32,000 bases of DNA from Bryobacterales bacterium (GCA_963768385.1 CAVYHQ010000002.1:255270-287269), one strand, 5' to 3'; positions 10,089 to 30,999 are shown, numbered from the stretch's first letter. Made by a program: numbers and translations. Notes: a model not told the origin generated them from the sequence alone.

Positions 10089-11636
10089 TCAGAGTAGCAC
10101 CCCGTTGTCCGGGTTGCGGGTTTCGCCGGGGCTTGACACCAGGATTGCCGGCTGGCCTTTGATGACGCACTTGTTGGTGCAGATGCCGCATCCGATACAC
10201 AGTTCCAGGTTGACGCGCGGCTGCTTCACGGTGACCTTCCCGCCCCGGTCCATAGTTACCTGCGCTTCTTCGAACCAGATGGCCTTCTTGGGCGTGGGGC
10301 AATGCTCTTCGCAAACGATACACGTCCGCGCGGCGGCATACGGGAGACAGCGGTTGCGGTCGATGTACGCCAGGCCGATCTTGATCTTCTGCTTCTCTTC
10401 TACGCTGAGCGGCCGGATGGCGCCGGTGGGGCAGACCTCAGTGCACAGCGTGCACTCGTACTCGCAGTAGCCGATGGTCATCTTCATGACCGGCGTCCAC
10501 ATGCCCTCCAGCCCGCCTTCGAGCGCCGCCGGGTGAATGCCGTTGGTCGGGCACACCTTCATGCACTCACCGCAGCGGATGCACTTGGAGAGAAACTCCT
10601 CTTCGCCCAGCGCTCCCGGGGGACGCACCAGCTCGGGGTTGTAGGAGCGCTTGCCGGCCAGCGGATGCGTGCGGAACAGGAGCGCTCCGCCGGCGCCGGC
10701 GACGCCCGAGGCCAGCAACTGGCGGCGGCCGAGGTCCAGGCGCGAGTCCTTCGGCGGCTTCAGATAGCTGGTCCCCCAACTGAGAGTGACTGCCTGCGAG
10801 GGGCAATCGGACTGGCAGTTGAAGCAGTAGAAGCATTCCGCCGGCTTCCATTCGAGGGTGTTCCCCACGTTGGCGCCACCCTGGCAATCGGCCAGGCACA
10901 GACGGCAATTGTCGCAGGCTTCGGGGCTCTTGTTGAGCCGCACCAGCGGGTTCCTGCCGGCGATTCCGAGCAGCGCCCCGAGCGGACAAATGTACCGGCA
11001 CCAGAAGCGCGTCCGGTAGAAGTTGAGGGCGATAACCACTCCGAACAGCACCCCGATCAGGACGTTCCCGAAGTAATGCGGCTGCGCGACGGCGAGTAAC
11101 TGCCGGCGCAGTGAGTCGTAGAACAGGATCGAGTCAGCGGCGCTGTTGAGTGCCGGGTACACGGCCACCGCCATTCCCCGGAAGAAGAAAGAAAGCGGGT
11201 CAAGCCAGCCCACCACGTTGACGCCCAGCAGCGCGGCCGCCAGAAACACCACCAGCACGTAATACTTGGCCTTGTGCCAGCGGCCATAGCCGCCGGTATC
11301 GAGCCGGGCCTTGACCGGGCCGCCGCGCAGGCTGGAGAAGAGATGGTGCAGAGTGCCGAAGGGGCAGATCCATCCGCAGAACCAGCGGCCGAACAGGAAG
11401 GTGACGGCCAGCGTGGCGAGCGAGAGCAGCATGCCCGCGGCCAGCGCGTGCGACGCCAGCCAATCCGTCAGCATCACCAGCGGATCGATTTGGAAGAAGA
11501 ACTTGACTCCGCCGCCCACGCGGTTGATGGGGTGATACACGGTTTCCAGAAACAGGTAGAGGAACAGCAGCAGAAACGCGGTCTGGACGGCGCGGCGGAG
11601 CCACACCAGCGTGGTCGTTGGCGTTTTGCGAGCCAT
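10089..11636 (-). CDS. Membrane polyferredoxin; NapH/MauN-like N-terminal half fused to a NapG/MauM-like C-terminal half
   Basis: The N-terminal half is multi-TM with two CX3CP motifs (CGWICP, CRYICP) and two 4Fe-4S motifs (CDNCRLCLADC, CFYCFNCQSDCP), which is the NapH pattern. An RR-containing hydrophobic segment follows (LGRRQLLASGVAGAGGALLF). After it come LVRPPGALGEEEFLSKCIRCGECMKVCP and three more Cys clusters (CEYECTLCTEVCP, C-x8-CIVCEEHCP, CIGCGICTNKC), which is the NapG pattern. Confidence 0.85.
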   Translation of the reverse strand: MARKTPTTTLVWLRRAVQTAFLLLFLYLFLETVYHPINRVGGGVKFFFQIDPLVMLTDWLASHALAAGMLLSLATLAVTFLFGRWFCGWICPFGTLHHLFSSLRGGPVKARLDTGGYGRWHKAKYYVLVVFLAAALLGVNVVGWLDPLSFFFRGMAVAVYPALNSAADSILFYDSLRRQLLAVAQPHYFGNVLIGVLFGVVIALNFYRTRFWCRYICPLGALLGIAGRNPLVRLNKSPEACDNCRLCLADCQGGANVGNTLEWKPAECFYCFNCQSDCPSQAVTLSWGTSYLKPPKDSRLDLGRRQLLASGVAGAGGALLFRTHPLAGKRSYNPELVRPPGALGEEEFLSKCIRCGECMKVCPTNGIHPAALEGGLEGMWTPVMKMTIGYCEYECTLCTEVCPTGAIRPLSVEEKQKIKIGLAYIDRNRCLPYAAARTCIVCEEHCPTPKKAIWFEEAQVTMDRGGKVTVKQPRVNLELCIGCGICTNKCVIKGQPAILVSSPGETRNPDNGVLL

Positions 11637-12536
11637 CTAAACCTCCACCCGCGCCGGTGAGAGCGCCGCGTAATTCATGTTCCCGAGGCCGCGGGCGTGG
11701 CCTTCCACTATGTACCCAATGTCCGCTGGCCGGAGGCCCAGCAGCGTGGCGCCGAAGGCATCCACGGCCACCTGGTCCACGCCGGCCACGATGGTGTCGC
11801 GGCGTTTCACGTCGGCGAGATTGCCGCCCACCGGGCCGTTGGCCGCCAACACGCGCACGGCATCAAGCACCACCAGTTGCGGCCGGATGAAGCCGGCCAG
11901 GTCGGCGATGGTGTTGTTGATGTCCTGGTGGAAGCGGTTGCGCGCGCCGCCGGCGACGCCCATCAGGTTCTTCATTCCGAGGACGGCCAAGGTGAGGCTG
12001 TGGTGCTTGACAATCCCCACATTGATGACGCGGTCGGCCTCCACCACATCGCGATAGATTTCCCATTCCTTGAGGACATGAGCGCCCTGGATGGCCATCT
12101 TGCGGAACTTGCGTTCATCCATGAAATAGCACTGCGCGCCGGCCTTCTGGGCGGCGCTCTGGATGCCACTGCGCGGATAGGTGCTCTGCGGCGAGTTGCA
12201 GGGGTTGTCGCCGACCGCGACTTTTTTGGCGCCGGCCTGGAAGCACATCTCGACGAGCGCGGCGACCACGTCGGGGTTGGTGCAAGCCGCCTGTTCGGGG
12301 CGGCGGTCCCAGGCGATGTTGGGCTTCACCCAGACCACGTTGCCCTTGGAAACGAAACGGGCCATGCCGCCCAGCGCGTCAATGGCGCTGCGTGTCAGCC
12401 GCCGGGCCTCCTCCGCAATGCCATCGGGCTCGGCCGGAGAAGATTTGTAATGGGCAATGCTCAGCGACGGCGCGGTGGCGGGCAGAAGCGCGGGCGCAAG
12501 CGACAACAAAAACTGTCTCCGATCGATCTCCATCAC
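11637..12536 (-). CDS. DUF362-family protein with a twin-arginine (Tat) signal
   Basis: The N-terminus MMEIDRRQFLLSLAPALLPATAPSLSIA has an RRxFL motif followed by a hydrophobic region. The DUF362-like core includes VWVKPNIAW, CTNPDVVAALVEMCFQAGAKKVAVGDN and VKHHSLTLAVLGMKNLMG. The first codon at 12536 is GTG, with ATG at 12533. The stop abuts the polyferredoxin start with a 0-nt gap. Confidence 0.85.
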   Translation of the reverse strand: MMEIDRRQFLLSLAPALLPATAPSLSIAHYKSSPAEPDGIAEEARRLTRSAIDALGGMARFVSKGNVVWVKPNIAWDRRPEQAACTNPDVVAALVEMCFQAGAKKVAVGDNPCNSPQSTYPRSGIQSAAQKAGAQCYFMDERKFRKMAIQGAHVLKEWEIYRDVVEADRVINVGIVKHHSLTLAVLGMKNLMGVAGGARNRFHQDINNTIADLAGFIRPQLVVLDAVRVLAANGPVGGNLADVKRRDTIVAGVDQVAVDAFGATLLGLRPADIGYIVEGHARGLGNMNYAALSPARVEV

Positions 12537-13333
12537 GGCTTTACCTTGTCCAGAAAAGCGGCCGCGCCGGGCGGCGGATGAAGACAGAGTATGGCATAGT
12601 GGCCGCGTGCGAAGAAGATGACTTCACCGCCCGACCGAAGATAGTAGCGACGGAGTTGCTCTACTCTCTGGTTGGCGTCGCGGGCATCCGCGGCCAGCGA
12701 GATCACGAGAGAGGTTACCTGGCCATCGAAGCGGTAAGAGGCCGTCAGCGCAGGCGCCAGGAAGTCATGGCCGGCGGGAGCTTCGACCAGATATTTCTCC
12801 GACCGCGCCACGCGGTTCTCGCGGGGAAGAATGTCGAGCAGGGCCGGCAGCGAGCGATCCCCGCCGATATTCCGCGAGATCGCGCGCGCGAAGTTGTCGA
12901 GTGCCGGCCCAGCCCCGTCGCCGAAAGCCGAGAGCCGGACGTAATAGCGGCCCTGAAGAAAGTTGAGCGTCGATTCGCTGCTGTAACCCTCCGCCCCGAT
13001 GGAAATGAAATGATATTCGGGAGAGCGCTCCATCGAGTAAATGCCGAACGCTGCCAGCGGGCTGCCCATATCGAATACGTCCACCGTCATTTCGACGCCC
13101 GCAATCTTATACTCGCGGTGAACCATCGCCAGCAGCCCGTACTTGAGATAGATGTCGGCGCCGCCGTCCATGTACCGGTAGAGGTCGGACGAATAGAAGC
13201 GTGCTGGGTTCTTGCCATTGGGGAGCAACGCGGCGAGCCGCGTCTTCACTTCGGCCGGAATGGGAGCCTGTTGCGCGTAGAGTGCAGCCGCCAGAACGAG
13301 ATAGGCAATGGGTCTGCGCATGGTGTGCTCCAA
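12533..13333 (-). CDS. Hypothetical secreted protein, first gene of the DUF362/polyferredoxin operon
   Basis: It has a signal peptide (MRRPIAYLVLAAALYAQQ; starts at 13333 or 13321) and GC3-rich coding on the minus strand. The stop TGA (12533-12535) overlaps the GTG/ATG start of the DUF362 gene, indicating translational coupling. No family was assigned with confidence. Confidence 0.7.
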   Translation of the reverse strand: MEHTMRRPIAYLVLAAALYAQQAPIPAEVKTRLAALLPNGKNPARFYSSDLYRYMDGGADIYLKYGLLAMVHREYKIAGVEMTVDVFDMGSPLAAFGIYSMERSPEYHFISIGAEGYSSESTLNFLQGRYYVRLSAFGDGAGPALDNFARAISRNIGGDRSLPALLDILPRENRVARSEKYLVEAPAGHDFLAPALTASYRFDGQVTSLVISLAADARDANQRVEQLRRYYLRSGGEVIFFARGHYAILCLHPPPGAAAFLDKVKP

Positions 13334-14658: not shown

Positions 14659-17085
14659 GTGCGGTCTGGGTGGGCGTCGCGCCGCTTCCTTCCTTTGCTG
14701 CTGCTATTGTTCGCGGGCAGCGGTTGTTCCGCGCTGATCTACGAAATCGTCTGGTACCAGTTGTTGCAACTGGTGATCGGTTCCACGGCGGTTTCACTGG
14801 CCGTATTGCTGGCCACTTTCATGGGCGGGTTGTGCCTGGGCAGCATGGCTCTGCCGCGCATCCTCTCCCTGCGGCGGCAGCATCCCTTGCGCGTTTATGG
14901 GCTGGTGGAAATGGGAATCGGGATCTGCGGAATCCTGGTGCTGTTCGGAATGCCTCTGGTCGACCAGGTTTACGTGGCGGCGGTGGGGCACGGATTGCCG
15001 GCCATGTTGCTGCGCGCGGTGGTGGCGGCGGCATGCCTGCTGCCGCCCACGGTGCTGATGGGCGCGTCGCTGCCGGCCGCGTCGCGGTGGCTTGAAACCA
15101 CTCCGGAGGACGTTTCCTGGATGGGCCTGTTGTACGGCGGCAACACCGCCGGGGCCGTGTTCGGATGCCTGCTGGCGGGGTTCTATCTGCTGCGTGTCTA
15201 TGACATGGCGACGGCGACTTGGGTGGCCGCGGCCATCAACGGGGCGGTGGCTCTGATCAGTTTCGGCATAGCTTCGCGGACGCCGCACCAGGCTGCGGCC
15301 GAAGAGCCGCCCGCGACGCCGGCGGCGGAGGCTGCGCCGGCGGCGGGTTCATGGCCGATCTATGTGACCATCGCGCTCTCGGGAGCGTGCGCACTGGGCG
15401 CCGAGGTGGTTTGGACGCGCCTGTTAGGGCTGCTTCTGGGCGCCACGGTCTACACGTTCTCCATCATTCTGGCGGTGTTCCTGGCGGGCTTGGGGGTGGG
15501 CAGCGCCGTAGCGGCGGCGCTGGTGCGGGGCATCGCCCGGCCGCGCCTCGCCATCGGCTGGTGCCAACTGCTGCTGGCCGGGGCCGTCGCGTGGACCGCG
15601 TACATGCTGGCCAACTCGCTGCCGTATTGGCCCATCAACCCGCTGCTCTCCACCAGCCCCTGGTACACGTTCCAGATCGACCTGGCGCGTGCGACTTGGG
15701 CGATTCTACCGGCGGCGTTGCTGTGGGGCGCCAGTTTTCCGCTGGCGCTGGGGGCGGTGGCCGGGCCCATCGGGCACCCCGGCGGCGATGCCGGGCGAAT
15801 GGTGGGGGGCATTTACGCGGCCAACACCGCCGGCGCGATTGTGGGCGCCCTCGCGTTCAGCATGCTTCTGATTCCAGCCGTGGGCACGCAAGGGTGCGAG
15901 CGCGTGCTGATCCTGCTCTCTGCTGTGAGCGCGCTCTTCGCGCTGGCGCCGCTGGCTTGGCCGCCGCGGAGGAAAGCCGGCGGGCTCTTGCTGGCGGCCG
16001 CCACGGCCGGCGCCGTTCTCCTGGCCATGAGCGTCTCCGGGGTTCCTTCCATGCTGATCGCCTATGGGCGCCGAATCACGATCTCGGCGCACCGCTCGGA
16101 AATTCTCTACGCGGGCGAAGGGATGAACGCGTCCATCGCTATCTCGCGGTGGGACGACGGCGCGGTGCAGTTCCACGTCAGCGGCAAGGTGGAAGCTTCC
16201 ACGGAACCGTACGACATGCGGCTGCAGCGGATGCTCGGCCACATGCCCGCGCTGCTGCATGCCAAGCCCCGTTCGGTGCTGGTAGTGGGCTTCGGCGCGG
16301 GCGTGACGGCCGGCTCGTTTGTGCTGCACCCCGAGGTGCAGAGAATCGTCATCTGCGAAATGGAGCGGATGATTCCGCCGGTGGCGACGCGCTACTTCGG
16401 CCGGGAGAACTACAACGTTCTGAACGACCCGCGCGTCGAAATGGTCTACGACGACGCGCGCCACTACGTCCTGACGACTCAGGAAAAGTTCGATGTGATA
16501 ACCTCAGACCCGATTCATCCGTGGGTCAAGGGCAGCGCCACGCTCTATTCCAAGGAGTACTTTGAGCTGGTGAAGCAGCATTTGAACCCGGGCGGCATTG
16601 TCACCCAGTGGGTGCCCTTGTACGAGAGCGACCTAAGTACGGTGAAGAGCGAGCTGGCTACCTTCTTCGACGTTTTTCCGAGCGGAACCATCTGGGGCAA
16701 CGACACCGCGGGGGGCGGCTATGACACCGTGCTGCTGGGGCAGGCCGAGCCAACCAGGATCGACGTGGACCAACTGCAAGAGAAGCTGGAACGCCCGGAC
16801 CAGGCGCGCGTAGCCGCGTCGATGCGCGAGGTGGGATTCGGCTCGGCGATCGCCCTGCTTTCGACCTATGCCGGGCAGGGTCCCGATTTGAGGTCGTGGC
16901 TGGCGGACGCGGAGATCAACCTGGATGGCAACCTGCGGCTGCAATACCTGGCGGGACTGGCTCTGAACAACAGCATGGAAGGAGCCATTTACAGCCAGAT
17001 GCTAACCTATCGCCGGTACCCGGAGAACCTGTTTGTGGTCTCGGACCGGCTCAGGCCGGCGCTGATGGCGGCGTTAGCGCAGTAG
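14659..17085 (+). CDS. Fused MFS-like membrane domain / spermidine synthase-like protein (paralog 1)
   Basis: The GTG start lies 1 nt after the UxaE-like stop. The N-terminal ~450 aa are polytopic. A SpeE-like methyltransferase-fold follows (VLVVGFGAGVTAGSFV...QRIVICEME...YDDARHYV...FDVITSDPIHPW...LNPGGIVTQWVPLYE), then a C-terminal helical tail. Confidence 0.85.
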   Translation: MRSGWASRRFLPLLLLLFAGSGCSALIYEIVWYQLLQLVIGSTAVSLAVLLATFMGGLCLGSMALPRILSLRRQHPLRVYGLVEMGIGICGILVLFGMPLVDQVYVAAVGHGLPAMLLRAVVAAACLLPPTVLMGASLPAASRWLETTPEDVSWMGLLYGGNTAGAVFGCLLAGFYLLRVYDMATATWVAAAINGAVALISFGIASRTPHQAAAEEPPATPAAEAAPAAGSWPIYVTIALSGACALGAEVVWTRLLGLLLGATVYTFSIILAVFLAGLGVGSAVAAALVRGIARPRLAIGWCQLLLAGAVAWTAYMLANSLPYWPINPLLSTSPWYTFQIDLARATWAILPAALLWGASFPLALGAVAGPIGHPGGDAGRMVGGIYAANTAGAIVGALAFSMLLIPAVGTQGCERVLILLSAVSALFALAPLAWPPRRKAGGLLLAAATAGAVLLAMSVSGVPSMLIAYGRRITISAHRSEILYAGEGMNASIAISRWDDGAVQFHVSGKVEASTEPYDMRLQRMLGHMPALLHAKPRSVLVVGFGAGVTAGSFVLHPEVQRIVICEMERMIPPVATRYFGRENYNVLNDPRVEMVYDDARHYVLTTQEKFDVITSDPIHPWVKGSATLYSKEYFELVKQHLNPGGIVTQWVPLYESDLSTVKSELATFFDVFPSGTIWGNDTAGGGYDTVLLGQAEPTRIDVDQLQEKLERPDQARVAASMREVGFGSAIALLSTYAGQGPDLRSWLADAEINLDGNLRLQYLAGLALNNSMEGAIYSQMLTYRRYPENLFVVSDRLRPALMAALAQ

Positions 17086-19552: not shown

Positions 19553-19573
19553 GGGTGCGGGCCTCCAACTTCG

Positions 19574-19602
19574 AGTATATTGCACAAACGAAATAAACGC
19601 AA
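19574..19602 (-). promoter_or_regulatory. Candidate sigma70-type promoter for the antitoxin/PIN operon
   Basis: The minus strand reads TTGCGT-(17 nt)-TATACT. The -10 element ends 21 nt upstream of ATG 19552, and the GGAGG lies in that leader. Confidence 0.4.
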
Positions 19603-19832
19603 CACATTCGGATTATTCGAAATCTGCCTGCCGCGAGGTTTGCGCTCAAATCTCTGATATGGTGCGCGGCTTTGTGGTGCGCAGCGATCAGGTAGCAGCC
19701 AGTTTCATCGACAGTGATTCAGAGCAACGACCGTGACAGACGTTTCGGCGTTCCAACACGTACCACCACGCGGTAAGCCCATTAGGAATCTGGTGGAGGG
19801 GTTGTGGATCGAGGGCTGCAACGGGGCGGTTC

Positions 19833-21623
19833 CTAGGGTTGTGCTGGTGCCGGAGCTTGGCGCCCGCACAGATATGCGGAGATATCCGCAACGAATTCCG
19901 AGGCTTCCCGAAACACCTCTGGTGATTCGCCGATTTTAGGGATGGCCTTGGCGATCCAATCAGGCTTGTTTGTCGGACCTTCACGCCACCAACACTCAAG
20001 CACGCCGGCCGGCACCAAGAATAGGCCAACTTCTCGGCACTTCATCAAGAGTTCCTTTCCGGCGGTCAACTCCGCACCCGTTAGCCTGCTGATGCCGTAT
20101 CGTTTCACCTCACTCCAGTCTGTAGCCGAATCTAATAGCTCCTGGAGTTCCTTGCGGTCTCCAGACGTAATCCTGCCTGCCATCTCGACTCGATCCAAAA
20201 CTGACCGGGCACTCTCGGCAAACTCAGAGGCCAGCACGAGAGGCTTCCGGTCATTTAAGGCCGAGGAGGTTCTCTTGTATAGTATTTCGATCTTTGACGG
20301 ATCGCCTCTAAGGGTACCGTACAGTTTCAAGAATTCTTCCCGCCGCCTAAGGAGGTCCAGATCCGCAATTACAGCAGTTGGAACGTCGAGAGCCTTGTAT
20401 GTCTCCGCAAGGGTAGCGATGGCCCCCTTACCGCCGCCATGCACGAAATACAGATCCAAAGGAAGTGACGATTCCTTCTCGGTGCGCAAGGCGAGTGCCT
20501 CATAAAAGCGGCAATCGGAGTCTGCTTCGCACACCACCACGCCGGAATGAAAGAGTCCAGTGATCGCCATGGACGAGCGAAGGAGGGGTTTCGCCCATAG
20601 ATCCTGTAATTCAGATTTTCCGAGGGCGGAGACGCGATTTCTATTCCCGTCCCGTGTCATCCGACACACGATGACGTTCGGGGAAGCATCCATCGCACCT
20701 TGGATGATGTCGCTACTGTGTGTTGCAAGGATTATTTGACGGCTGCCGGTTGTTGCGCTTTCTGCAAGGATGCTTCCCAACCGGCGGGCCTGGGGGGGAT
20801 GCAGAAAAGCCTCAGGTTCATCGATGAGCATCACCGGATGGGTGCCAACTTCTGCGGCGAGCACACTTCCTACGAAGCTTCGAATACCGTCGCCCTCGTT
20901 GTCCAGCCGCGGCTGCAACTCCAGAGCCTTCAAGTATTGCACGGATACGCGATCAGCATCACGCTGTCTAGGCGGTTCCTCTCCAACGTGAAACCACACT
21001 TGTTGCCCTCCGCCAAAGTTTATGAGTAACCGGCGATTGAAGGCGGACCGCACGAGGGCGGAAACCCGTTCAGCTAGAACCTCGTCCCGCTGGAGGAAGT
21101 GAATATACGCGGTTGGATTGGTGGTATACGGAGCTGATTGTGTTGCCGAGGCGATGGATAACCGTGATTGGGTATCAAGACGCAGCATCAGAACGTGGCT
21201 CATCCCGGCCACGCTTTGAGCAGTAAGTGTGAAACCTGGCTGCTCTGGTCCAATGCCTGTTCCAGGGTGACCGCCCGCACCATGCGGGAGGGGTGCAGTT
21301 TGGAAGAATTCAATACCTGGAGCTTGCTTGAATGCTGGGTATCGGAGGCGTAACCACTCTGCAAGCTGGTGCGGGGTTCCGGTGCATTGAAACGCAACGT
21401 CGGTGACCACATAGAACGGAAGTTGTGGATTCGGGCCGAACGGGCCCAGCCGTTGCAGATGTTGCTGGATTTCCCGGAGAGTAATACTCTTGCCGCTATT
21501 GTTCGGCCCCGTAATTATCAGCGTCGTTCCCGGTGCGGGGGAAAGAACCAATCCATCGTTAAACGTCAGCTTTTCAATACCAAATGTGAATTCCGAGGCC
21601 GGTGATGCGAAGGAGATGCCCAT
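19833..21623 (-). CDS. ABC-type ATPase fused to a TOPRIM/DUF4435-like nuclease domain (OLD-family or single-chain PARIS-like defence nuclease)
   Basis: ATPase motifs are Walker A ITGPNNSGKS, signature-like EGDGIRSF, Walker B VMLIDEPEAFLHPPQARRL and H-loop LATHSSD. The C-terminal half has VVVCEADSDCRFYEAL (TOPRIM Glu), HGGGKG and VIADLDLL (DxD). G+C is visibly lower than the flanks. Confidence 0.75.
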   Translation of the reverse strand: MGISFASPASEFTFGIEKLTFNDGLVLSPAPGTTLIITGPNNSGKSITLREIQQHLQRLGPFGPNPQLPFYVVTDVAFQCTGTPHQLAEWLRLRYPAFKQAPGIEFFQTAPLPHGAGGHPGTGIGPEQPGFTLTAQSVAGMSHVLMLRLDTQSRLSIASATQSAPYTTNPTAYIHFLQRDEVLAERVSALVRSAFNRRLLINFGGGQQVWFHVGEEPPRQRDADRVSVQYLKALELQPRLDNEGDGIRSFVGSVLAAEVGTHPVMLIDEPEAFLHPPQARRLGSILAESATTGSRQIILATHSSDIIQGAMDASPNVIVCRMTRDGNRNRVSALGKSELQDLWAKPLLRSSMAITGLFHSGVVVCEADSDCRFYEALALRTEKESSLPLDLYFVHGGGKGAIATLAETYKALDVPTAVIADLDLLRRREEFLKLYGTLRGDPSKIEILYKRTSSALNDRKPLVLASEFAESARSVLDRVEMAGRITSGDRKELQELLDSATDWSEVKRYGISRLTGAELTAGKELLMKCREVGLFLVPAGVLECWWREGPTNKPDWIAKAIPKIGESPEVFREASEFVADISAYLCGRQAPAPAQP

Positions 21624-22452: not shown

Positions 22453-23367
22453 ATGAAGAATCATAGTCGCCGTGAATGGCTGGGCGGAACCAGTCTGGCT
22501 CTGCTGGCCGGCCGGCTGCGGGCGCTGCCGCTGTCACAGTTCAAACTCGGGGTGACCACCGACGAGATCGATGACGACGTCCTTACCGCCGTCAAGTTTC
22601 TGCGCGAATATGAGCTCGGCTGGGCCGAGGTGCGGAACATCTGGGGGAAGTACAATACCGAGCAGCCGATGGAGAAAATCCGCGAGGCGCGCGGCATCTT
22701 CGACCAGAATGGCATCAAGGTGTCGATCGACAGCACGCCGTTCTTCCGGATTCCGCTGCCGGCCGAATCCGCCGAGGGGCAGCGAATCCTGGATGAACAG
22801 TGGGCCTTGCTGAATACTTCCATGGAGCGGGCGAGGGCGTTCGGCACGCAGAAACTGCGCGTTTTCGCGTTCATGCTGAGCGGCAGCGGGACGCCGTCCG
22901 AAAAGAGCTATGCGCGAATCTACGAACTGCTGAGCGAGGCCGCGCGGCGCGCCAAGCCGGGGGGATTCCGGCTGGCGGTGGAGAACCTCGGCGGCGGTTG
23001 CGTGGCCACCGGGGCGCAAGCGGGCGAGATGCTGAAGCGCGTCAAGGCGGATAACTTCGGGCTCACGTGGGACCCCAACAACGCGGGCGAATCCGGCGAG
23101 CAGGCGTTTCCCGATGGCTACCGCAAACTGGACCCGGCGCGCATCTTCCATGTGCATCTCCGCGACTACAAGCACCAGAACGGCAAGGTGGTGTGGACCG
23201 CCGTGGGCGATGGCGAGTTCGACAACCTCGGGCAGATCCGCGCCCTGTTGAACGACGGATACAAGGAGACCTTCACGCTGGAAACGCACTGGCGGGACCC
23301 GAAGGGCAAGGCGTACTCGAGCGCGACATCGCTCAAGGCCCTGCTGAAGGTGATCGAGCGCGTGTAG
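22453..23367 (+). CDS. Sugar phosphate isomerase/epimerase (xylose isomerase-like TIM barrel) with a Tat-type signal
   Basis: The N-terminus is MKNHSRREWLGGTSLALLAGRLRA. The body is a typical AP_endonuc_2/XylA-like barrel (RVFAF, LAVENLGG, WDPNNA, HVHLRDY, TLETHW). Confidence 0.8.
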   Translation: MKNHSRREWLGGTSLALLAGRLRALPLSQFKLGVTTDEIDDDVLTAVKFLREYELGWAEVRNIWGKYNTEQPMEKIREARGIFDQNGIKVSIDSTPFFRIPLPAESAEGQRILDEQWALLNTSMERARAFGTQKLRVFAFMLSGSGTPSEKSYARIYELLSEAARRAKPGGFRLAVENLGGGCVATGAQAGEMLKRVKADNFGLTWDPNNAGESGEQAFPDGYRKLDPARIFHVHLRDYKHQNGKVVWTAVGDGEFDNLGQIRALLNDGYKETFTLETHWRDPKGKAYSSATSLKALLKVIERV

Positions 23368-23369
23368 AG

Positions 23370-25541
23370 GTGAGAGACAGAGTCGGAGTTCGGCCGGTTC
23401 TAGTCCTGATCGGCTTCACCGCGGCCATTGCTCAGATCGTGCTCATGCGCGAGCTGATGGTGGTCTTCTGCGGCAACGAGATTTCGCTCGGGCTGATGCT
23501 GGGGAGCTGGCTGTTTTGGACCGCCGCGGGCAGCGCGTGGGCGGGCCGTCTCGGAGAACCCCGACGCCTGATGGCCGGTCTGGAGGCGCTGGTGGCCTTG
23601 GCGCTGCCGGCGACCATCCTGGCGGTGCGCGCCAGCAAGGCGGTGCTCGAAGCGGTTCCGGGAGAAAGCCTGGGGCCGGGGCCAATGCTGCTTGGGTCGC
23701 TGGCGACGCTGAGCCTGTTCTGTGTCCTGTCAGGCGCTCTGTTCGCCGCTGGCAGCAGGCTGTACGGGGATGACGTGGCCACCTCCACGGGTTCGGTGTA
23801 CCTGCTGGAGGCGCTGGGGTCCGCCGCCGGAGGCATGCTGGCGGGCCTGGTGCTGGTACGATACGTCGCCCCGCTCGAGATTGCATTGGGACTGGGGCTG
23901 CTCAATCTTCTGGCTGCGGCGGGCCTGGTAATCCGCGCGCGGTTGGCTCGCGGCGCGGCGATGGGCGCACTCGCCGGCATGGCGGTGTTGCTGGCGCTTC
24001 CTTTCGGTTTCCCGAGGCTGGAAACAATTTCCCTGGAGCGCTTCTGGCGCGGCTTCCACCTGGTGACGACGCGCAACTCGGTCTATGGCAACCTGGCGGT
24101 GGTCCGGACGGAAGGCGCCAGCAGTCTTTACGAGAACGGTCTGAACCTTTTTAACGTGCCCGACCCGGCCGCGGCGGAGGAGGCGGTGCATTACGCTCTG
24201 CTCGAGCAGCCTTCGCCTCGAAGCCTTCTGCTGATCGGCGGAGGCGTCAACGGGAGCCTGGCCGAAGCGCTCAAGCACGGCAGCCTGGAGCGGATCGACT
24301 ACGTCGAACTGGACCCAGCAATTCTGGACCTGTTCCCCATACAGAAGGACCCGCGAGTGCGCGTACACGTGACCGACGGGCGCCTGTTCTTGAAGACCAC
24401 GGCATCCACCTTCGACGTCATCATCGTGAATCTGCCGGATCCGCAGACCGCGCAGTTGAACCGGTTCTACACGCTGGAATTCTTCCGCGAGGCGGCGAGA
24501 AAGCTCACCGCGAGCGGCATCCTGGCGCTGCGGCTGACGGGGGCGGAGGATTACATCAGCCCGGAACTGGCGGCATTTCTGCGCTCCATCTACAAGACCC
24601 TGCGCGCGGTATTTCCCGAGGTCACGGCGATTCCCGGCGAGACCGTTCACTTCTTCGGCGCCAAGCGAACGGGAGTCCTGGCGGCTGGCCCCGAGGAGTT
24701 GCTAGCGCGGCTGCGGGCGCGGCGGCTCGAAACCAGCTACGTGCGGGAGTATTACATTCCCTTTCGCATGATGCCGGATCGCATGGCCGGCCTCGAACGG
24801 CAGATCGAGCCGCGGCCGGAGACGCCCGTGAACCGCGACTTTGCGCCGGTGGCCTACTACTTCGACGTGGCGCTGTGGAGCAGCCGCTTCAACCACGGTT
24901 ACCGCGACCTTTTCCGCGCCATGGCGGGCGTCAGCTTTAGCTGGCTGGCGGGAGCGGTGGGCGTGGTTCTGCTGGTGCTGGTGGCCAAGAAGCGGCGGGC
25001 CCGGACGGCGGCCGCGTGCTGCACCGCCGCCATGGGATTCACTTTGATCGGCCTGGAGATGCTGCTCCTGCTGGCGTTCCAGGCGATCTACGGCTACGTC
25101 TACCAGCAGCTTGCCGTCATCATTGCCGCTTTCATGGCCGGCATGGCGCTGGGGAGTTGGCTGGCTCTTGCACGGGGCAGGTCGGGGACCTGCCCCACAA
25201 TGCGCACCCTGGTGCTTCTGCAAATTGGCGCGGCCATCGCGCCACTGCTGCTGTGCGCGGTCTTTCAAGCTGTCACCCAATGGCTGTTTCCCGTGTTGGC
25301 GCTCGGCTGCGGGATGCTGGGCGGATTCGAGTTTCCGGTTGCCAGCCGGATCTTTGGCGGGCGCAATCCGGGAACACTGTACGCGCTCGACCTGGCGGGC
25401 TCCTGCCTGGGCGCGGTGCTGTTCAGCGTCTACTTGATCCCGGTGTTCGGCTTTCTCAAAACGGCCGTTCTGGCTGCGATGGTGAGCTTGGCCCCGGCAG
25501 TGATGGCGGTTCGTTCGGTGTCGGAAAGACCAGCGCGGTGA
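23370..25541 (+). CDS. Fused MFS-like membrane domain / spermidine synthase-like protein (paralog 2)
   Basis: GTG 23370 lies 2 nt after the upstream stop; the track start at 23067 lies inside the preceding gene. N-terminal TM helices are followed by a SpeE-like core (LLLIGGGVNGSLAEAL...IDYVELDP...VTDGRLFL...FDVIIVNLPDPQTAQLNRFYTLEFF), then about 6 more C-terminal TM helices. Confidence 0.8.
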   Translation: MRDRVGVRPVLVLIGFTAAIAQIVLMRELMVVFCGNEISLGLMLGSWLFWTAAGSAWAGRLGEPRRLMAGLEALVALALPATILAVRASKAVLEAVPGESLGPGPMLLGSLATLSLFCVLSGALFAAGSRLYGDDVATSTGSVYLLEALGSAAGGMLAGLVLVRYVAPLEIALGLGLLNLLAAAGLVIRARLARGAAMGALAGMAVLLALPFGFPRLETISLERFWRGFHLVTTRNSVYGNLAVVRTEGASSLYENGLNLFNVPDPAAAEEAVHYALLEQPSPRSLLLIGGGVNGSLAEALKHGSLERIDYVELDPAILDLFPIQKDPRVRVHVTDGRLFLKTTASTFDVIIVNLPDPQTAQLNRFYTLEFFREAARKLTASGILALRLTGAEDYISPELAAFLRSIYKTLRAVFPEVTAIPGETVHFFGAKRTGVLAAGPEELLARLRARRLETSYVREYYIPFRMMPDRMAGLERQIEPRPETPVNRDFAPVAYYFDVALWSSRFNHGYRDLFRAMAGVSFSWLAGAVGVVLLVLVAKKRRARTAAACCTAAMGFTLIGLEMLLLLAFQAIYGYVYQQLAVIIAAFMAGMALGSWLALARGRSGTCPTMRTLVLLQIGAAIAPLLLCAVFQAVTQWLFPVLALGCGMLGGFEFPVASRIFGGRNPGTLYALDLAGSCLGAVLFSVYLIPVFGFLKTAVLAAMVSLAPAVMAVRSVSERPAR

Positions 25542-27018
25542 AGCGGAAGATGTCGGTGTCGGCGTCCTGCCAGCAATTCTTGGGCAAACCGGCCTTGTAA
25601 CAGGTCTCATCGAGAAAAGTGGTGCGGTCCCACTTTTCTTCTACCGGGACCTGGGGGAGCAGCAACCCCTCGATGTCGCCCTTCTTCATGATCAGGCCAT
25701 GCTGTCCCACGCGGATCTCCTTGACGTCCAGCACCCGGCGGAGCGGTGAAAGGACCGAGATTTCATACTCCAGCGCGCCCAGTTCGCGGGCGGAGACCGG
25801 CTGGAAGCGGGTGTCCCTCAAGGCAGCGAACATGGCCACGTCGCGAACGGTAATGGAGAGAGGCTTGACGGGAGCTACGTAGCCGATGCAGCCGCGCAGT
25901 TGGCCGTTCTCCTTAAGGGTGACGAAGGCGCCGCGCTCTTGCTCCAGAGCCTCGAACGCCACCGGTGAATATTCGTACTGTTTGTGATCTCTGACGGCGG
26001 TTTCCACGGACTTGCGTGCGATCTTGAGCAACTCATCTTTCTCCCGCTGGCTGAGGGAGAAGGGCGGCTCGCTCGAGCCGGCACGCGCCGGGGCTTTCAC
26101 AAAGGCCACGGCGCCGTAGCCCACCACGCGGGACTTGTCGCCGGCGGTATCGCCGGAGTTCGCATACTTCAGGACCTTGGCCTGCGAGGCTCCCAGCCGC
26201 TCGGAAGCGATCATGGCGGCTATGATCGGATATCCGCCGCAGGCCTCCCAGACGTTGACTCTCGGGTCGAAGTTGCGCGCCATGCTGAGGTAGTCCCACT
26301 CCTCGATGGCCTTCAAGGTCTTGTGGTCTATCTTCACGGCCTCGTCATAGGGATGGTAGTGCGAGAGGTCGGAACTGGCGACGATCAAGGTGTTGGTGCC
26401 CTGGATCAGCTTGGCGAGCGCCAGCCCCAGCGCGCGGCAGGTTTCATAGCTCTGGTCTCCTATGACGATGGGCACAAGCTGAAACTGGCCGAGCACGCGC
26501 TGGAGGAAAGGGAGCTGATCTTCCAAAGCGTGTTCCGGCTTGTCGGGCGTAGGGGTGTGTCCGGCCCCGGAAAGCTTGATGAGCTTGCTCATGGTGGCCA
26601 GCTTGGCGGCGAACGCCCGGTCCACGGGGACCTGGCCCAGCGGCGTGGTGTAAGCAGCGCCGTCGTACACCGACGCGTAACCGAAAGCTTCGTAATGCGA
26701 CGGCGCGATGACCACCACCCGGTCGAACTTGCGGCCTTTGAGCAAGGCATAGGAGTAGGCGGCCACTTGCCCGGCGTACTCATAGCCGGCGTGCGGTGCG
26801 ACCAGCGCCACGACATCGGTTAGTGGCGGAGGCGCGGCCTTCGCCAGGAAACCGTCCACCATTTTCGCAAGTTCGTTGGGGTCGGCCGGATAGAACGATC
26901 CGGCGACCGCGGCCGGCCGCACCTTGGCGGACTCGGCGGAGCTGGCGCCCCTGGGCCGCAGCAGAACAAACCCGGCCACCAGGACGAGTGCGATGACAAA
27001 CACAGTTACGATTCTCAT
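25456..27018 (-). CDS. amrB-amrA: AmmeMemoRadiSam system protein B (Memo-like) fused to protein A (AMMECR1), with an N-terminal signal/anchor
   Basis: ATG 27018 overlaps the amrS stop as ATGA. The leader is MRIVTVFVIALVLVAGFVLLRPRGASSAES. Memo motifs are GSFYP, APHAGYEYAG, SSDLSHYH and ACGGYPI. After a linker come the AMMECR1 motifs GAFVTL, LRGCIGY and GLLLPQVP. Confidence 0.9.
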   Translation of the reverse strand: MRIVTVFVIALVLVAGFVLLRPRGASSAESAKVRPAAVAGSFYPADPNELAKMVDGFLAKAAPPPLTDVVALVAPHAGYEYAGQVAAYSYALLKGRKFDRVVVIAPSHYEAFGYASVYDGAAYTTPLGQVPVDRAFAAKLATMSKLIKLSGAGHTPTPDKPEHALEDQLPFLQRVLGQFQLVPIVIGDQSYETCRALGLALAKLIQGTNTLIVASSDLSHYHPYDEAVKIDHKTLKAIEEWDYLSMARNFDPRVNVWEACGGYPIIAAMIASERLGASQAKVLKYANSGDTAGDKSRVVGYGAVAFVKAPARAGSSEPPFSLSQREKDELLKIARKSVETAVRDHKQYEYSPVAFEALEQERGAFVTLKENGQLRGCIGYVAPVKPLSITVRDVAMFAALRDTRFQPVSARELGALEYEISVLSPLRRVLDVKEIRVGQHGLIMKKGDIEGLLLPQVPVEEKWDRTTFLDETCYKAGLPKNCWQDADTDIFRFTALVFPTPNEPPSLPGPSSPSQPERPF

Positions 27019-28139
27019 AAGTGAAGTAATCCGTCCCAAACTCCCGGGATGGCTTGCTGGCAGAACTGGCACTTGCCCCGGTTGAGGTGAATGGCCCTCA
27101 CCGCGAAGCCGGCGCGCTCCACCACCATGCGACGGCACTTGGGGCAGTAGGTGCTCTCGGCCGGATGGCCGGGAATGTTGCCGATGTAAACGTAGTGAAG
27201 GCCTTCGGCGTCGCAAATGGCTTTGGCGCGCTCGAGGGTCGGCACGGGCGTGATCGGAAGGTTCTTCAGGAGATACTCCGGATGGAATTGCGAGAAGTGC
27301 AGCGGGACGTCCGGGCCTAACTCGGTTTTCACCCAGCGGGCGAGCGATTTGAACTCCTGGTCGGAGTCATTCAGGGTGGGGATTACCAGGTAGACGATCT
27401 CGTTCCAGGTGCCCTGCTTGCGAATGGCGACCAGGGTGTTGAGCACGGGCTTCAACTCGCCGTTGACCACTTCTTTGTAGAACTTCTCGGAAAAGGCTTT
27501 GAGGTCGATCTTGATGGCGTCTACGCGGCGGCACAACTGCTTCAGCGGCTCTTCCTGAATGTAGCCTCCGCTGACCACTGCGCTCTTCACGCCGGCTGCG
27601 CGGCCGGCTTCCGCGGTATCCAGGACATACTCGCAAAACACCACCGGTTCGCTGTAGGTATAAGCGATGGAAGGGCAGTTATACCGCTGGGCCACGGCGG
27701 GCACGCTTTGAGGAGGAAGATAGGTGTTCTCGACCTGTTCGGGCCGGGACTGGGAGATCTCCCAATTCTGGCACATTTTGCAATTGACGTTGCAGCCTGC
27801 GGTGGCGATGGAGAACGCCATGGTGCCGGGGATGAAATGGAAGAAGGGTTTCTTTTCGATAGGGTCAACGTGGGCGGAACAGACGCGGGAGTAGACGAGC
27901 GAGTAGTAAGTGCCGCCGCGGTTTTCGCGCACGCCGCAGTAGCCGCGCTCGTGGTCGTCGATGACACATTCGCGCGGGCAAAGCTTGCACTTGATCTTCT
28001 TATAGGGCAGTTTCTCGTAGAACCGCGCTTCGATGGTGAACTGCGCGTCGTTGGCCGCGGGCTTGGCCGGCGCGCCTTCGGCGGCGCACACCGCCAGGCA
28101 GGGCAGGGTAGCGGTCTTGAGAAATGCCCGGCGGTCCAT
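27015..28139 (-). CDS. amrS: AmmeMemoRadiSam system radical SAM enzyme with a twin-arginine signal
   Basis: ATG 28139 lies 4 nt after the DUF362 stop. The leader is MDRRAFLKTATLPCLAVCAAEGAPAKPAA. It has an N-terminal Cys cluster (CKLCPRECV...YCGVR), the radical SAM motif CNVNCKMC (CX3CX2C) and a C-terminal CPKC...CQFC ribbon. Confidence 0.9.
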   Translation of the reverse strand: MDRRAFLKTATLPCLAVCAAEGAPAKPAANDAQFTIEARFYEKLPYKKIKCKLCPRECVIDDHERGYCGVRENRGGTYYSLVYSRVCSAHVDPIEKKPFFHFIPGTMAFSIATAGCNVNCKMCQNWEISQSRPEQVENTYLPPQSVPAVAQRYNCPSIAYTYSEPVVFCEYVLDTAEAGRAAGVKSAVVSGGYIQEEPLKQLCRRVDAIKIDLKAFSEKFYKEVVNGELKPVLNTLVAIRKQGTWNEIVYLVIPTLNDSDQEFKSLARWVKTELGPDVPLHFSQFHPEYLLKNLPITPVPTLERAKAICDAEGLHYVYIGNIPGHPAESTYCPKCRRMVVERAGFAVRAIHLNRGKCQFCQQAIPGVWDGLLHL

Positions 28140-28143
28140 AGCT

Positions 28144-29115
28144 TTAGATCTCCACTCTTTCGATGAGGCTGGGGTCGTTGGTTCCGAGCCGGTGCTGCGG
28201 ATCGGCGGCCCTGGCGATGTAGGCCGGTTCCCGCTTGACATCCCGCAACGGCTGGATGCCCTTCTCGGCCCGTTTTTGTTCGATGATGCGCCACCCCGTG
28301 TAATCCAGCGCCACCGGGTCGCGGGAAACGATTACGCCGTTGAATGGCCAGGACCATTGCGGCATATAAGAAGGTCCGCCTTCGTACTGGGGCGCGATGG
28401 CGTCGCAGATAGTCAGCCTCACCTTCTGGCGGATGGGCGGCAGCATGTTGACGTCGGCGACGTACGGATCGCCGGCGGTGAGGTGGTACTTGTTGGGGTT
28501 GTGGATGGCGCCGAACAGGTTCTTGAGGGCCATGGTCACCCCCACAATGCCATGGTCTTTGAGGACCGGCAGGTTGACGACGGCGTCGCAGGTTCGCGTC
28601 AGGGTGGTGGAGAGGAGACTCCCCACGCTGCCGTAGATGGCCAGGTCGGTTTCGTATCCGGAGGCATCGTTGCCGATCGAGCGGATGCGATCTTTGCGAG
28701 AGGCCACCTGGAACCCGGCGCTTTCGAGGTCGGAGTTGAGGCGGTCCCAGATTACGATGTTTTTGGGCGGAATTCCCGCTTGCTGGAGCCGCTCGCAGAC
28801 GGCTTCGACGAGCACTGTATTGGTGGAAGCGCCGCGACCGGCCAGGCAGTTGACTTTCAAGCCGACCACCTCAGTGGGCCGTGCGATTCGCTTCCAGGCC
28901 TCGATGGGCGAATCGGCGTCATAGATGGACTGGACGGCGCGGTCAAGCACTTTCAGGAGACGGCTGGAATCGAGGGAGGCGCCCGATGGCCGCAACAACG
29001 GGTCGCGGGAGATGACGACTTTCGATTTGCCTGGGACGGCGGCGGGGGCGGGGAGCGCGCCGGCAAGGCACGCGCGCAGGAGATTTCGGCGACTGGTGCC
29101 CGGGTTTCGGTCCAT
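28144..29115 (-). CDS. DUF362-family protein with a twin-arginine signal (paralog of 11637-12536)
   Basis: ATG 29115 gives MDRNPGTSRRNLLRACLAGALPAPAAV. The DUF362-like core includes VVGLKVNCLAG, NTVLVEAVCERLQQAGI and VLKDHGIVGVTMALKNLFG, parallel to the first paralog. Confidence 0.85.
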   Translation of the reverse strand: MDRNPGTSRRNLLRACLAGALPAPAAVPGKSKVVISRDPLLRPSGASLDSSRLLKVLDRAVQSIYDADSPIEAWKRIARPTEVVGLKVNCLAGRGASTNTVLVEAVCERLQQAGIPPKNIVIWDRLNSDLESAGFQVASRKDRIRSIGNDASGYETDLAIYGSVGSLLSTTLTRTCDAVVNLPVLKDHGIVGVTMALKNLFGAIHNPNKYHLTAGDPYVADVNMLPPIRQKVRLTICDAIAPQYEGGPSYMPQWSWPFNGVIVSRDPVALDYTGWRIIEQKRAEKGIQPLRDVKREPAYIARAADPQHRLGTNDPSLIERVEI

Positions 29116-29394
29116 ACGCAACTCCCCCGCCTGGCCGGCGAATATCAGGTGGTCCGATTCTGTTATAGCACCCGGCTGGGGCCGGGGGCCAGGGGCCGGA
29201 GGCCAGGGGCGGAGCCTGAAGCTGACCCAGTACCGGACTCGGGCACGTTCCGGGCTAACTTTAGTTAGGTACCAATGCCTATCACGTACCGTGACCGTAC
29301 TCTTGGACCTTTCGCCAGCGCCCCCCACGGGCCATACTGCAAACGATACAGTCCGGGTACAGAGTCTGAAAGGTGTTCTGGAAAGGGTTTGATT

Positions 29395-30042
29395 ATGACG
29401 CAGCTTTTGCTTTACAGCAAGGAGCCCCTTCTGGCAAAAGCACTCGAATCGGTGCTTCGCCAGGCCGGGGGGTTCGACTTGCTGCCGCTGTGCAGTACAT
29501 TGGCCGAGTTAACGGAGGAGATAGGGCACAAGACGCCGGACCTAATTCTACTGGATCATGGTCCGGAGCTGACCTTTGCCGTCTTGAGCGAGATGCACCA
29601 CGCGACGAGCTCGAAGATTGTCCTCTGGGTGAACTTGATCTCCATTGAGCTGGCCTGTCAGGCCGTGGAGTTAGGGATTCGGGGGATCCTGCGCAAGACG
29701 CTGCCGCCCGGACTCCAGGTGAAGTGTCTGCGACAAGTGCAGGCGGGTGAACTGTGGTTTGAAAAAGCCCTGGTCAACGACTTCATCTCGGCGCGCCGTG
29801 TCGCCCTGACGCCGCGGGAAGGGCAGCTTGTGACCCTCCTCTCTCAAGGTTGGAAGGACAGAGAAATCGCTCTTCGTCTGAGCGTTTCGGAGGGCACCGT
29901 GAAAGTCTACCTTTCGCGGCTGTGCCAAAAAGCCGGCATCAAAGACCGCTTCGAGCTGGCCTTGCTCAGCTTGAAGAACCTGTCCGTCGAAGCGTCAAAA
30001 ACCGAGGCAGGGTGCACGACCTGCCCGCGCGGAGGAGAGTAG
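29395..30042 (+). CDS. LuxR/FixJ-type response regulator with an atypical receiver domain
   Basis: ATG 29395 gives MTQLLLYSKEPLL. The receiver fold keeps PDLILLD and the conserved Lys (GILRK), but the N-terminal acidic pair is S-K. The C-terminal LuxR HTH is LTPREGQLVTLLSQGWKDREIALRLSVSEGTVKVYLSRLCQKAG. Confidence 0.8.
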   Translation: MTQLLLYSKEPLLAKALESVLRQAGGFDLLPLCSTLAELTEEIGHKTPDLILLDHGPELTFAVLSEMHHATSSKIVLWVNLISIELACQAVELGIRGILRKTLPPGLQVKCLRQVQAGELWFEKALVNDFISARRVALTPREGQLVTLLSQGWKDREIALRLSVSEGTVKVYLSRLCQKAGIKDRFELALLSLKNLSVEASKTEAGCTTCPRGGE

Positions 30043-30054: not shown

Positions 30055-30999
30055 ATGTCACGATACTTTGCTTTGCTTTCGATCGTCTTCATGATGGGCT
30101 TTGTGATGGTGTTCGACAAGGCTCACCTCGAGGGATGTAATGCCCGCTTCTGGAAAACAGACTCTGATGAGCCACCAAGAGGTGGATCAACTGCTCATGA
30201 TTCTGTCGGCTTGCCAAAACGGCTAGGGCCCTGGAAAGTACCTATGAATAAGCACATCACGTTGATGGCGCGGCTGGTATTTGCATTCCTGCTGCTTTGT
30301 GGGCTCGCCCCGGCAGGAACCATCATTGAGCCTACAGGAGTTGACTGGAACCGCGGGGAGAGCATCTGGATCAAGGAGGATGGTGTCGACACGCAGGCCT
30401 ACTTTGCCGGGGTGGTCTTCATCGCGCTCCAGCAGAACGGCCAGGAGTATGATCGGGACACGCTGTGCGTGGACCTGTTCACCAATATCTATCTTGGCGT
30501 GGAGTACGGCACACAACTCCTGCATCCTGACGAGGTGTCGGGCAAGAACCTGGGCCGGGTTTCATGGCTGGTGGATAATGCGCTTCTTCCGACCCAAAAC
30601 TCGCCGATCATGTCGGTCCTGCCGACGGGAGATTGGGTGGAGTCACCCTCCCAAGGGGCAGGGATTCAGCTTGCGATCTGGGATATTGTCCACGATGATG
30701 GCGATGGATTCTCGGCAGGAAGGGTGCAGGCCGCCGCCGCTACCGATCCCTCCGTGCTCTCCTGGGCGGAGGAATATGAAGGCCTGAGCGCGGGCCAGCA
30801 GTCCGGCCTCGCCGTGATTTACAGCAACACGAATCTTGAGACGCAGCAGCCCGTGCAGATGCTGGCCGGACCGGGGTTCGCGGACAATGGCCCCCAACCG
30901 AATCCCGAGCCCGCCACGCTGCTGTTATCAGGGACGGCTTTGATCGGCATCAGCGTGTTGCTGCGGCGGCGCCTGCGTAGAAATCGAGCGGCTGCATGA
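30055..30999 (+). CDS. PEP-CTERM sorting-signal protein (exosortase substrate)
   Basis: The C-terminus NPEPATLLLSGTALIGISVLLRRRLRRNR has the PEP motif, a TM helix and an Arg cluster. ATG 30055 has GGGAG 7 nt upstream. An in-frame ATG at 30244 gives a classical signal peptide (MNKHITLMARLVFAFLLLCGLAPAG). The start is unresolved. Confidence 0.7.
   Translation: MSRYFALLSIVFMMGFVMVFDKAHLEGCNARFWKTDSDEPPRGGSTAHDSVGLPKRLGPWKVPMNKHITLMARLVFAFLLLCGLAPAGTIIEPTGVDWNRGESIWIKEDGVDTQAYFAGVVFIALQQNGQEYDRDTLCVDLFTNIYLGVEYGTQLLHPDEVSGKNLGRVSWLVDNALLPTQNSPIMSVLPTGDWVESPSQGAGIQLAIWDIVHDDGDGFSAGRVQAAAATDPSVLSWAEEYEGLSAGQQSGLAVIYSNTNLETQQPVQMLAGPGFADNGPQPNPEPATLLLSGTALIGISVLLRRRLRRNRAAA

Follow-up and report, generated by a model that had tools for sequence, protein, structure and literature searches.

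An AmmeMemoRadiSam operon with conserved export leaders in Acidobacteriota: a candidate extracytoplasmic system with DUF362 and spermidine synthase-like partners

The window analyzed here is the whole stretch of 32,000 nucleotides of Bryobacterales DNA, from a member of the Bryobacteraceae (Acidobacteriota). On its minus strand, at 25456-29115, lies an operon for a DUF362 protein, the radical S-adenosylmethionine (SAM) enzyme AmrS and a fusion of Memo and AMMECR1, that is, the three families of the AmmeMemoRadiSam cassette together with DUF362. Here it is proposed, with somewhat more confidence than doubt, that this operon encodes an AmmeMemoRadiSam system exported by the twin-arginine translocation (Tat) and Sec routes, which would act at the outer face of the inner membrane. 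Taken by itself, the predicted Tat export of AmrS and DUF362 is likely. The genes and their N-terminal signals are as follows.

28144..29115, minus strand: DUF362 protein, 323 aa, first gene of the operon (PF04015, 81 bits)
27015..28139, minus strand: AmrS radical SAM enzyme, 374 aa (TIGR04337, 382 bits, intact CX3CX2C)
25456..27018, minus strand: fusion of Memo (AmrB, residues 34-306) and AMMECR1 (AmrA, residues 329-498) (TIGR04336, 261 bits; TIGR04335, 179 bits)
about 29115-29035, minus strand: Tat-type leader of DUF362, (S/T)RRxxL, MDRNPGTSRRNLLRACLAGALPAPAAV
about 28139-28029, minus strand: Tat leader of AmrS, ~37 residues with the twin-arginine (RR) motif, MDRRAFLKTATLPCLAVCAAEGAPAKPAAN
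27018-26929, minus strand: Sec-type signal or signal-anchor of the fusion, with a strongly hydrophobic core, MRIVTVFVIALVLVAGFVLLRPRGASSAES

The three genes are arranged head to tail and are translationally coupled. DUF362 runs from ATG 29115, which has GGGGAG 7 nt ahead of it, to TAA 28146-28144; a 4-nt gap separates it from AmrS, which starts at ATG 28139, preceded by GGAG, and stops at TGA 27017-27015. This stop overlaps the start of the fusion (ATG 27018) as ATGA, and the fusion ends at 25456. On rechecking, the coordinates and junctions of all three genes matched those of the original prediction, made earlier for this DNA, and the N-termini read as quoted there. No signal above chance was found for an internal promoter or terminator in the cluster, and a search of 22-32 kb for Rfam families and riboswitches found no RNA family. 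The closest related locus belongs to a peat-bog metagenome-assembled genome, with an AmrS protein identity of 98%.

AmrS matches TIGR04337 with 382.3 bits (cut-off 220) and contains the CX3CX2C motif. The profile begins at residue 39, so the ~37 N-terminal residues are an extension beyond the family core. The protein opens with MDRRAFLK, placing the motif DRRAFLK in a positive n-region, followed by an h-region of moderate hydrophobicity (best 12-residue Kyte-Doolittle (KD) window 1.75, below transmembrane (TM) strength), and hydropathy revealed no second membrane segment in the mature parts of the three products. Conservation was followed in 80 genome loci from Acidobacteriota, whose AmrS proteins are 72-98% identical. 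The leaders of these orthologues are 23 to 60 residues long and share 52% identity with that of the window, versus 79% for the mature core. This drift in length and sequence around a kept RR motif is the usual behavior of signal peptides and points to leaders under selection. A lipobox-like L-A-[AG]-C follows the RR motif in 38 of the 80 orthologues, and many AmrS may thus be Tat-dependent lipoproteins, though the window itself reads LAVC; putative peptidase sites of the APA-K and AAV-P types were also found after Tat-like h-regions.

It had been claimed that AmrS has no in-frame ATG from the RR motif to its first Cys cluster, and this holds; an in-frame GTG at V17 within the leader and an ATG upstream at 28241 had gone unmentioned. 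As several orthologous frames (L005, L024, L026 and L066) open only 1-2 codons ahead of MDRR, the start of AmrS is placed at 28139. Starts at V17 or at ATG 28241 are ruled out by orthologue conservation.

The DUF362 protein matches PF04015 over profile positions 1-199 of 200 with 81.3 bits (cut-off 24), and its leader carries the motif TSRRNLLR with a best 12-residue KD window of 1.64. In alignments of the homologues the conserved starts do not lie downstream of the leaders, and the twin arginines are kept in 78 of the 80 AmrS proteins and, as (S/T)RRxxL, in every full-length acidobacterial DUF362 orthologue. Judged by these features, the leaders of AmrS and DUF362 look like textbook Tat signals and are real as translated protein. 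In 78 of the 80 loci the gene immediately upstream of AmrS is DUF362; in one of the other two the contig ends. The clustering of AmrS, Memo and AMMECR1 is kept in about 64 of the 80, and in ~14 the DUF362-AmrS pair is kept with no Memo or AMMECR1 within 6 kb.

The fusion encodes both Memo (TIGR04336, 261.4 bits, cut-off 26) and AMMECR1 (TIGR04335, 178.6 bits, cut-off 99) in one open reading frame, with intact PHAGY, SDLSH and ACGG motifs in Memo and LRGCIG in AMMECR1. Its 18-residue hydrophobic core has a best 12-residue KD window of 3.46, which is Sec/SRP-like or typical of an anchor. Among the orthologues the N-terminal sequence drifts while the positive start and the hydrophobic core are always kept, and a Gly/Ser/Ala/Pro-rich tether of ~17 residues links the core to the Memo domain. 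The charge on the N-terminal side of the core equals or exceeds that on the C-terminal side in 47 of 65 orthologues, and RPR directly follows the core in the subclade of the window. A start at GTG (V32), just before the Memo domain, is ruled out by orthologue conservation. The original prediction of an export signal on every product stands for the RR leaders, which are kept in the orthologues, and is weakened for the fusion, whose signal is the weakest of the three and whose N-terminus may be an uncleaved anchor instead of a cleaved signal.

The distribution of these leaders was followed beyond Acidobacteriota. A search of 1.84 billion cluster representatives returned 7905 AmrS relatives, and the N-termini were read in the best 150 of them. 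Among these 150, 77 begin directly with the family core, RR leaders are present in 35-40, which are only 38-58% identical to the AmrS of the window, a few have Sec- or lipoprotein-type N-termini, and about fifteen are fusions. With a profile built from 30 RR-type AmrS, 113 of the 120 top hits had an RR motif within the first 45 residues. The hits with RR leaders come from at least seven phyla, including by their NCBI source names Pseudomonadota, Aminicenantes, Brocadiales/Scalinduaceae and Chloroflexota, with Schekmanbacteria, Calditrichaeota and Armatimonadetes as further lineages. In a neighbor-joining tree of 127 full-length AmrS core representatives, calculated without bootstrap, 80 leaderless AmrS formed one clade with no exported type inside, and all Tat, TM and fusion forms, as well as the unclear P0221, fell outside it. 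The tree argues strongly, though not finally, for one old split between leaderless and putatively exported AmrS. The putatively exported type is a large multi-phylum clade and is not peculiar to this genome.

The neighborhood of the two types differs as well. Partner statistics were drawn from loci flanked on each side by at least 1.5 kb of sequence, in a metagenome sample and in the first eight of twelve look-ups of distant Tat-type AmrS loci; the metagenome sample, obtained with a leaderless AmrS query, proved mixed and for that reason served as a control, and the Memo and DUF362 leaders in it were classified by direct reading of the sequences. DUF362 was present within 3.5 kb of 12/22 Tat-type AmrS, 0/4 Sec/TM-type and 0/18 leaderless AmrS (0/46 leaderless overall), and the difference between exported and leaderless AmrS is significant (Fisher p = 5e-4). 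In the twelve look-ups, DUF362 is adjacent to AmrS on the same strand in L083, L084, L085, L087 and L170, in the same operon in L086, and 3.4 kb away in L081. The proposal that DUF362 is a conserved neighbor is thus borne out by the acidobacterial loci and by its recurrence in Calditrichaeota, Armatimonadetes, Aminicenantes and Brocadiales. Nearly all DUF362 partners in the census have RR leaders of their own; two from Aminicenantes (L084, 6033-7004, and L099) do not, though their AmrS has one, which suggests that DUF362 may hitch-hike on AmrS in this lineage. Memo or Memo-AMMECR1 was found nearby in L085, L087 and L088. In L086, tatC (6250-6969) lies directly upstream of the genes for AmrS, a spermidine synthase-like protein and DUF362. 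In L171 the gene after AmrS (8205-8678) encodes a membrane protein of the RseC/MucC family, and a protein of this family is encoded ~6.5 kb downstream of AmrS in L086.

The spermidine synthase-like (Spe-like) protein was overlooked in the original prediction, which described a system of four modules; the conserved DUF362 partner of that system was upheld, and at least a fifth partner has to be added. In the window, two genes of this kind are present.

23364..25541, plus strand, start uncertain: polytopic protein resembling the "fused MFS/spermidine synthase" family (PF01564, 72 bits; NF037959, 45 bits)
14659..17085, plus strand: second MFS/Spermine_synth paralogue, 808 aa (PF01564, 87 bits)

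The first gene is convergent to the fusion gene, and their 3' ends overlap by 86 nt (25456-25541); its NF037959 match is borderline (45 bits, cut-off 40). The gene is found at the same place in 54 acidobacterial loci. Large membrane Spermine_synth proteins are also found near the distant Tat-type AmrS in L084, L086, L169 and L172, on the same strand in L084 and L086 and adjacent in L169, and overall a Spe-like protein was near 12/26 exported AmrS versus 1/18 leaderless (p = 0.006). This makes it a probable fifth partner. The AmrS and Spe-like genes of L169 overlap by 11 nt. Across 65 orthologues, the layout consists of seven TM helices, a Spermine_synth domain of 300 aa and seven more TM helices. 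The lysine and arginine residues of the loops amount to 17.8 per protein on the side that is inside for an N-in protein, versus 2.0 on the other, and the SAM-fold domain is therefore predicted outside the cytoplasm, which would be unexpected in itself for the fused MFS/spermidine synthase family. The second paralogue has 13 TM helices ahead of the catalytic domain, as judged by eye, which would put this domain on the same side; the TM bundles of the two paralogues can be aligned. Where true aminopropyltransferases have GGGDG and DSSDP, the Spe-like protein has GGGVNG and NLPDP, and for this reason it is not called a spermidine synthase here.

A paralogous DUF362 operon is also present in the window.

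10089..13333, minus strand: operon of DUF6599 (12533-13333), a second DUF362 with Tat leader (11637-12536) and a NapH-like polyferredoxin (10089-11636), assigned by Pfam

The leader of the second DUF362 begins with MMEIDRRQFLL, and the protein is 24% identical to the DUF362 beside AmrS (DUF362-1). Its sharing of an operon with a NapH-like polyferredoxin bears on the function of DUF362 and is counted in favor of the proposed exported system. The second MFS/Spermine_synth gene lies 1.3 kb from this operon, and DUF6599 also adjoins DUF362-AmrS in L084.

The fusions of AmrS relatives give further indications on topology and electron supply. P0152 and P0157 have one N-terminal TM helix, an FMN_bind domain with the ApbE motif (D..SGAT) and then AmrS; as no helix separates the two domains, AmrS and the FMN domain would share one side of the membrane. 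The AmrS of P0143, P0146 and P0144 is combined with FMN_bind and a NapH-like Fer4_5 membrane module; hydropathy alone did not settle the topology of these three, and the argument is built on the single-helix fusions. AmrS is fused to DsbD_2 in P0140 and P0147, and follows a signal and a beta-propeller or CBM11 domain in P0129 and P0130. FMN-binding domains flavinylated by ApbE, together with NapH-like proteins, are electron carriers to extracytosolic enzymes (Meheust et al. 2021, PMC8238504). Additionally, AmrS, AMMECR1 and Memo are joined in one polypeptide, in varying order, in P0188, P0217, P0172, P0142, P0180 and P0171, some of which are leaderless. The triple fusion P0180 has a Sec-like signal, which would send an Fe-S enzyme through Sec. 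In P0164 and P0209 AmrS is interrupted right after CX3CX2C by an intein with a LAGLIDADG endonuclease; P0229, P0230 and P0259 have the same break, the identity of the insert having been read in P0164 and P0209 only.

From these observations the following mechanism is proposed. AmrS, with its [4Fe-4S] clusters, and DUF362, with a putative cofactor, would fold and be loaded in the cytoplasm and then be exported by Tat, each on its own RR leader, while leaderless DUF362 in some lineages would probably ride on AmrS. The Memo-AMMECR1 fusion would cross by Sec or be anchored by its N-terminal helix. The proteins would then act jointly at the periplasmic face on an envelope substrate, most plausibly lipid-linked or glycan-bearing; a substrate bound to the membrane or envelope would agree with the CBM11 and propeller fusions and with the neighboring SpoIID and M23 peptidase genes. 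DUF362 would be an accessory that enables radical SAM chemistry outside the cell. Because it occurs only with exported AmrS and is replaced elsewhere by fused conduits, its best-supported role is electron supply or relay to AmrS; in other lineages of the clade the fused flavinylated FMN-binding, NapH-like or DsbD-like conduits would meet this need. The Spe-like protein, with its SAM-fold domain likewise predicted on the outside, would be part of this system and is the strongest candidate to deliver or handle the adenosyl co-substrate. The most far-reaching form of the proposal, in which AmrS performs multi-turnover radical SAM chemistry outside the cytoplasm, with electrons arriving through DUF362 or the conduits and SAM or a SAM derivative through the Spe-like protein, and acts with Memo and AMMECR1 to modify a lipid or glycan of the envelope, is offered tentatively and is itself rather doubtful.

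Several observations weigh against the exported system as proposed. SAM is not known to occur in the periplasm, and no earlier case of radical SAM enzyme export was found in the literature searched. A Cys motif that could hold an Fe-S cluster is absent from DUF362-1, and its model (pLDDT 70) gave no significant structural match by Foldseek, so that it is the genomic context that suggests its redox role. The charge rule does not settle the orientation of the fusion in the window, as RPR directly follows its core, and in the triple fusion P0142 the N-terminal TM helix is followed by more positive charge than precedes it, which fits an anchor on the cytoplasmic face. In one class of loci (L101, L118, L119 and L146), a short leaderless AmrS is followed on the same strand by a TM-anchored Memo-AMMECR1, with no DUF362, and with a Spe-like protein next in L101, L118 and L146, the contig of L119 ending inside the fusion; the partners therefore need not always share a compartment. 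Finally, the AmrS tree has short internal branches and no bootstrap, and its sample is biased towards relatives of the query.

The difficulty of SAM and reductant supply would disappear if AmrS acted first and were exported later, either as a one-shot maturase of DUF362 or another partner in the cytoplasm or through a single turnover with bound SAM, and were then co-exported in the complex, to be inert or single-use outside. The nearest characterized relatives of AmrS are protein activators (pyruvate formate-lyase activating enzyme (PFL-AE), TIGR02493, 59 bits; structure 3c8f), DUF362 is strictly tied to Tat-type AmrS, the leaderless DUF362 of Aminicenantes suggests export in a complex with AmrS, and folded complexes are Tat cargo; in one known system, cytoplasmic radical SAM enzymes mature a periplasmic effector (PMC13128918). 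However, maturases of Tat substrates normally stay behind and have no conserved signal of their own, and about half of the acidobacterial AmrS leaders look lipoprotein-like, which implies a lasting post outside. The FMN_bind, NapH-like and DsbD-like fusions likewise imply a continuing transmembrane supply of electrons to AmrS, and a second SAM-fold domain in the cluster is predicted to face outward. Action before export is accordingly regarded as unlikely, though it is the reading to be taken most seriously beside the exported system.

The signals themselves can also be read differently. If the leaders were vestigial, bound chaperones as in NarG or tethered the proteins to the cytoplasmic face, the system would be cytoplasmic and membrane-associated, in keeping with where SAM and low-potential reductants are found. 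For P0142 and the window fusion, the balance of charges is compatible with domains on the cytoplasmic side, and leaderless AmrS is indeed found with anchored Memo-AMMECR1 (L101, L118, L146). This is nevertheless improbable: the leaders appear to have a full architecture of a positive n-region, a moderately hydrophobic 12-residue h-region and a c-region of small residues, the lipobox-like motif occurs in 38 of the 80, a positive n-region with one helix places the passenger outside, tatC adjoins AmrS in L086, and in the fusions AmrS shares its side of the membrane with FMN_bind and CBM11 domains. Long spurious extensions of open reading frames are common in high-GC DNA, and with in-frame GTG codons at V17 of AmrS and V32 of the fusion, the leaders might be untranslated or chance frames with mis-called starts. 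This is scarcely credible, given that protein-level conservation of the RR motif and h-region holds both at 72-98% and at 38-58% identity, that Shine-Dalgarno motifs precede the proposed ATGs of DUF362 and AmrS, that several orthologous frames open at MDRR, and that the fusion keeps its signal property while its sequence changes. An exported system at the outer face of the inner membrane thus remains the favored reading.

Other genes of the window were recorded as well. Divergent from the DUF362 operon is an open reading frame for a LuxR-type regulator (29275-30042), which adjoins a PEP-CTERM-tailed secreted protein (30055-30999, plus strand). A xylose isomerase-like TIM-barrel protein (22453-23367, plus strand) likewise opens with an RR leader, MKNHSRREWLGG. 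On the minus strand, 18537-21623 encodes an OLD-like AAA+TOPRIM protein (19833-21623) and a PIN-domain protein (18537-19100), a pair that may be a defense or toxin island and appears unrelated to the exported system.

The conservation of Memo and AMMECR1 extends from bacteria to humans, both have links to human disease, and we know of no established biochemical function for either protein or for their radical SAM partner. A version at the membrane face would narrow the search for the substrate to envelope-associated molecules, and DUF362, the Spe-like protein and the carbohydrate-binding or conduit fusions would be testable partners for the function of Memo, AMMECR1 and AmrS. If true, a Tat-exported radical SAM clade would overturn the assumption that the superfamily is restricted to the cytoplasm, would require a transmembrane route for SAM and low-potential electrons, and would give a first functional context to DUF362, a large orphan family. 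Multi-turnover activity, if true, would further imply that many anaerobic or soil bacteria maintain a SAM economy in the periplasm, and AmrS would be the first radical SAM enzyme to work outside the cytoplasm.

Comparison with known systems places these features in context. DUF362 belongs to the same Pfam clan (CL0471) as the LarA/DUF2088 nickel-pincer racemases (PMC11770544), to which no significant match was found: the fold matches of DUF362-1 to LarA-like enzymes are weak and partial (probability 0.6-0.77, TM-score at most 0.38, Foldseek E at least 0.04) and a sequence match in the PDB is absent, so that its assignment as a LarA racemase was rejected. The closest characterized radical SAM relatives of AmrS are the glycyl-radical enzyme activases (PFL-AE, 3c8f), which share the same core fold region. 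AmrS differs in having extra N- and C-terminal Cys motifs and no glycyl-radical enzyme nearby; its identification as such an activase was rejected, with 58.9 bits against a cut-off of 231.75 for TIGR02493 and 51.5 against 174.35 for TIGR02494.

Fe-S proteins exported by Tat include hydrogenase small subunits and proteins of the DmsAB/HybA type, among them cases of co-export by hitch-hiking. The operon resembles these in that a leader of the RRxFLK type sits on a passenger loaded with cofactor, in that the partner may or may not carry a leader itself and, in one relative, in that tatC is adjacent; here, however, a radical SAM enzyme would be the cargo, and such an enzyme needs diffusible SAM plus electrons, and no radical SAM enzyme with its own Tat signal was described in the literature searched. 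AmrS relatives are fused to the same modules as in the extracytosolic flavinylation systems, with the [S/T]GA[S/T] motif kept, whereas the AmrS operon of the window has no such module and has DUF362 in its place; the description of those systems makes no mention of radical SAM, Memo, AMMECR1 or DUF362 (Meheust et al. 2021, PMC8238504).

The closest comparison is with the AmmeMemoRadiSam system itself, which the literature searched mentioned only incidentally. A comparative treatment by Burroughs et al. in 2019, outside the scope of that search, is said to have made an isoprenoid suggestion for it, with which a membrane- or envelope-bound substrate would also agree. Within the literature searched, no exported AmmeMemoRadiSam system and no DUF362 or MFS/Spe-like partner was described. 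As in the known cassette, the same three families were found here above their cut-offs, clustered and translationally coupled, with catalytic motifs intact. Unlike it, the operon of the window has a predicted export signal on each product, its AmrS falls outside the 80-member leaderless clade, and it has extra partners, of which DUF362 was near 0/18 and MFS/Spermine_synth near 1/18 leaderless AmrS. The three-gene cassette is thus known, while its putative exported form and the additional partners are apparently new within the literature searched, even though the RR leaders are visible in existing database entries.

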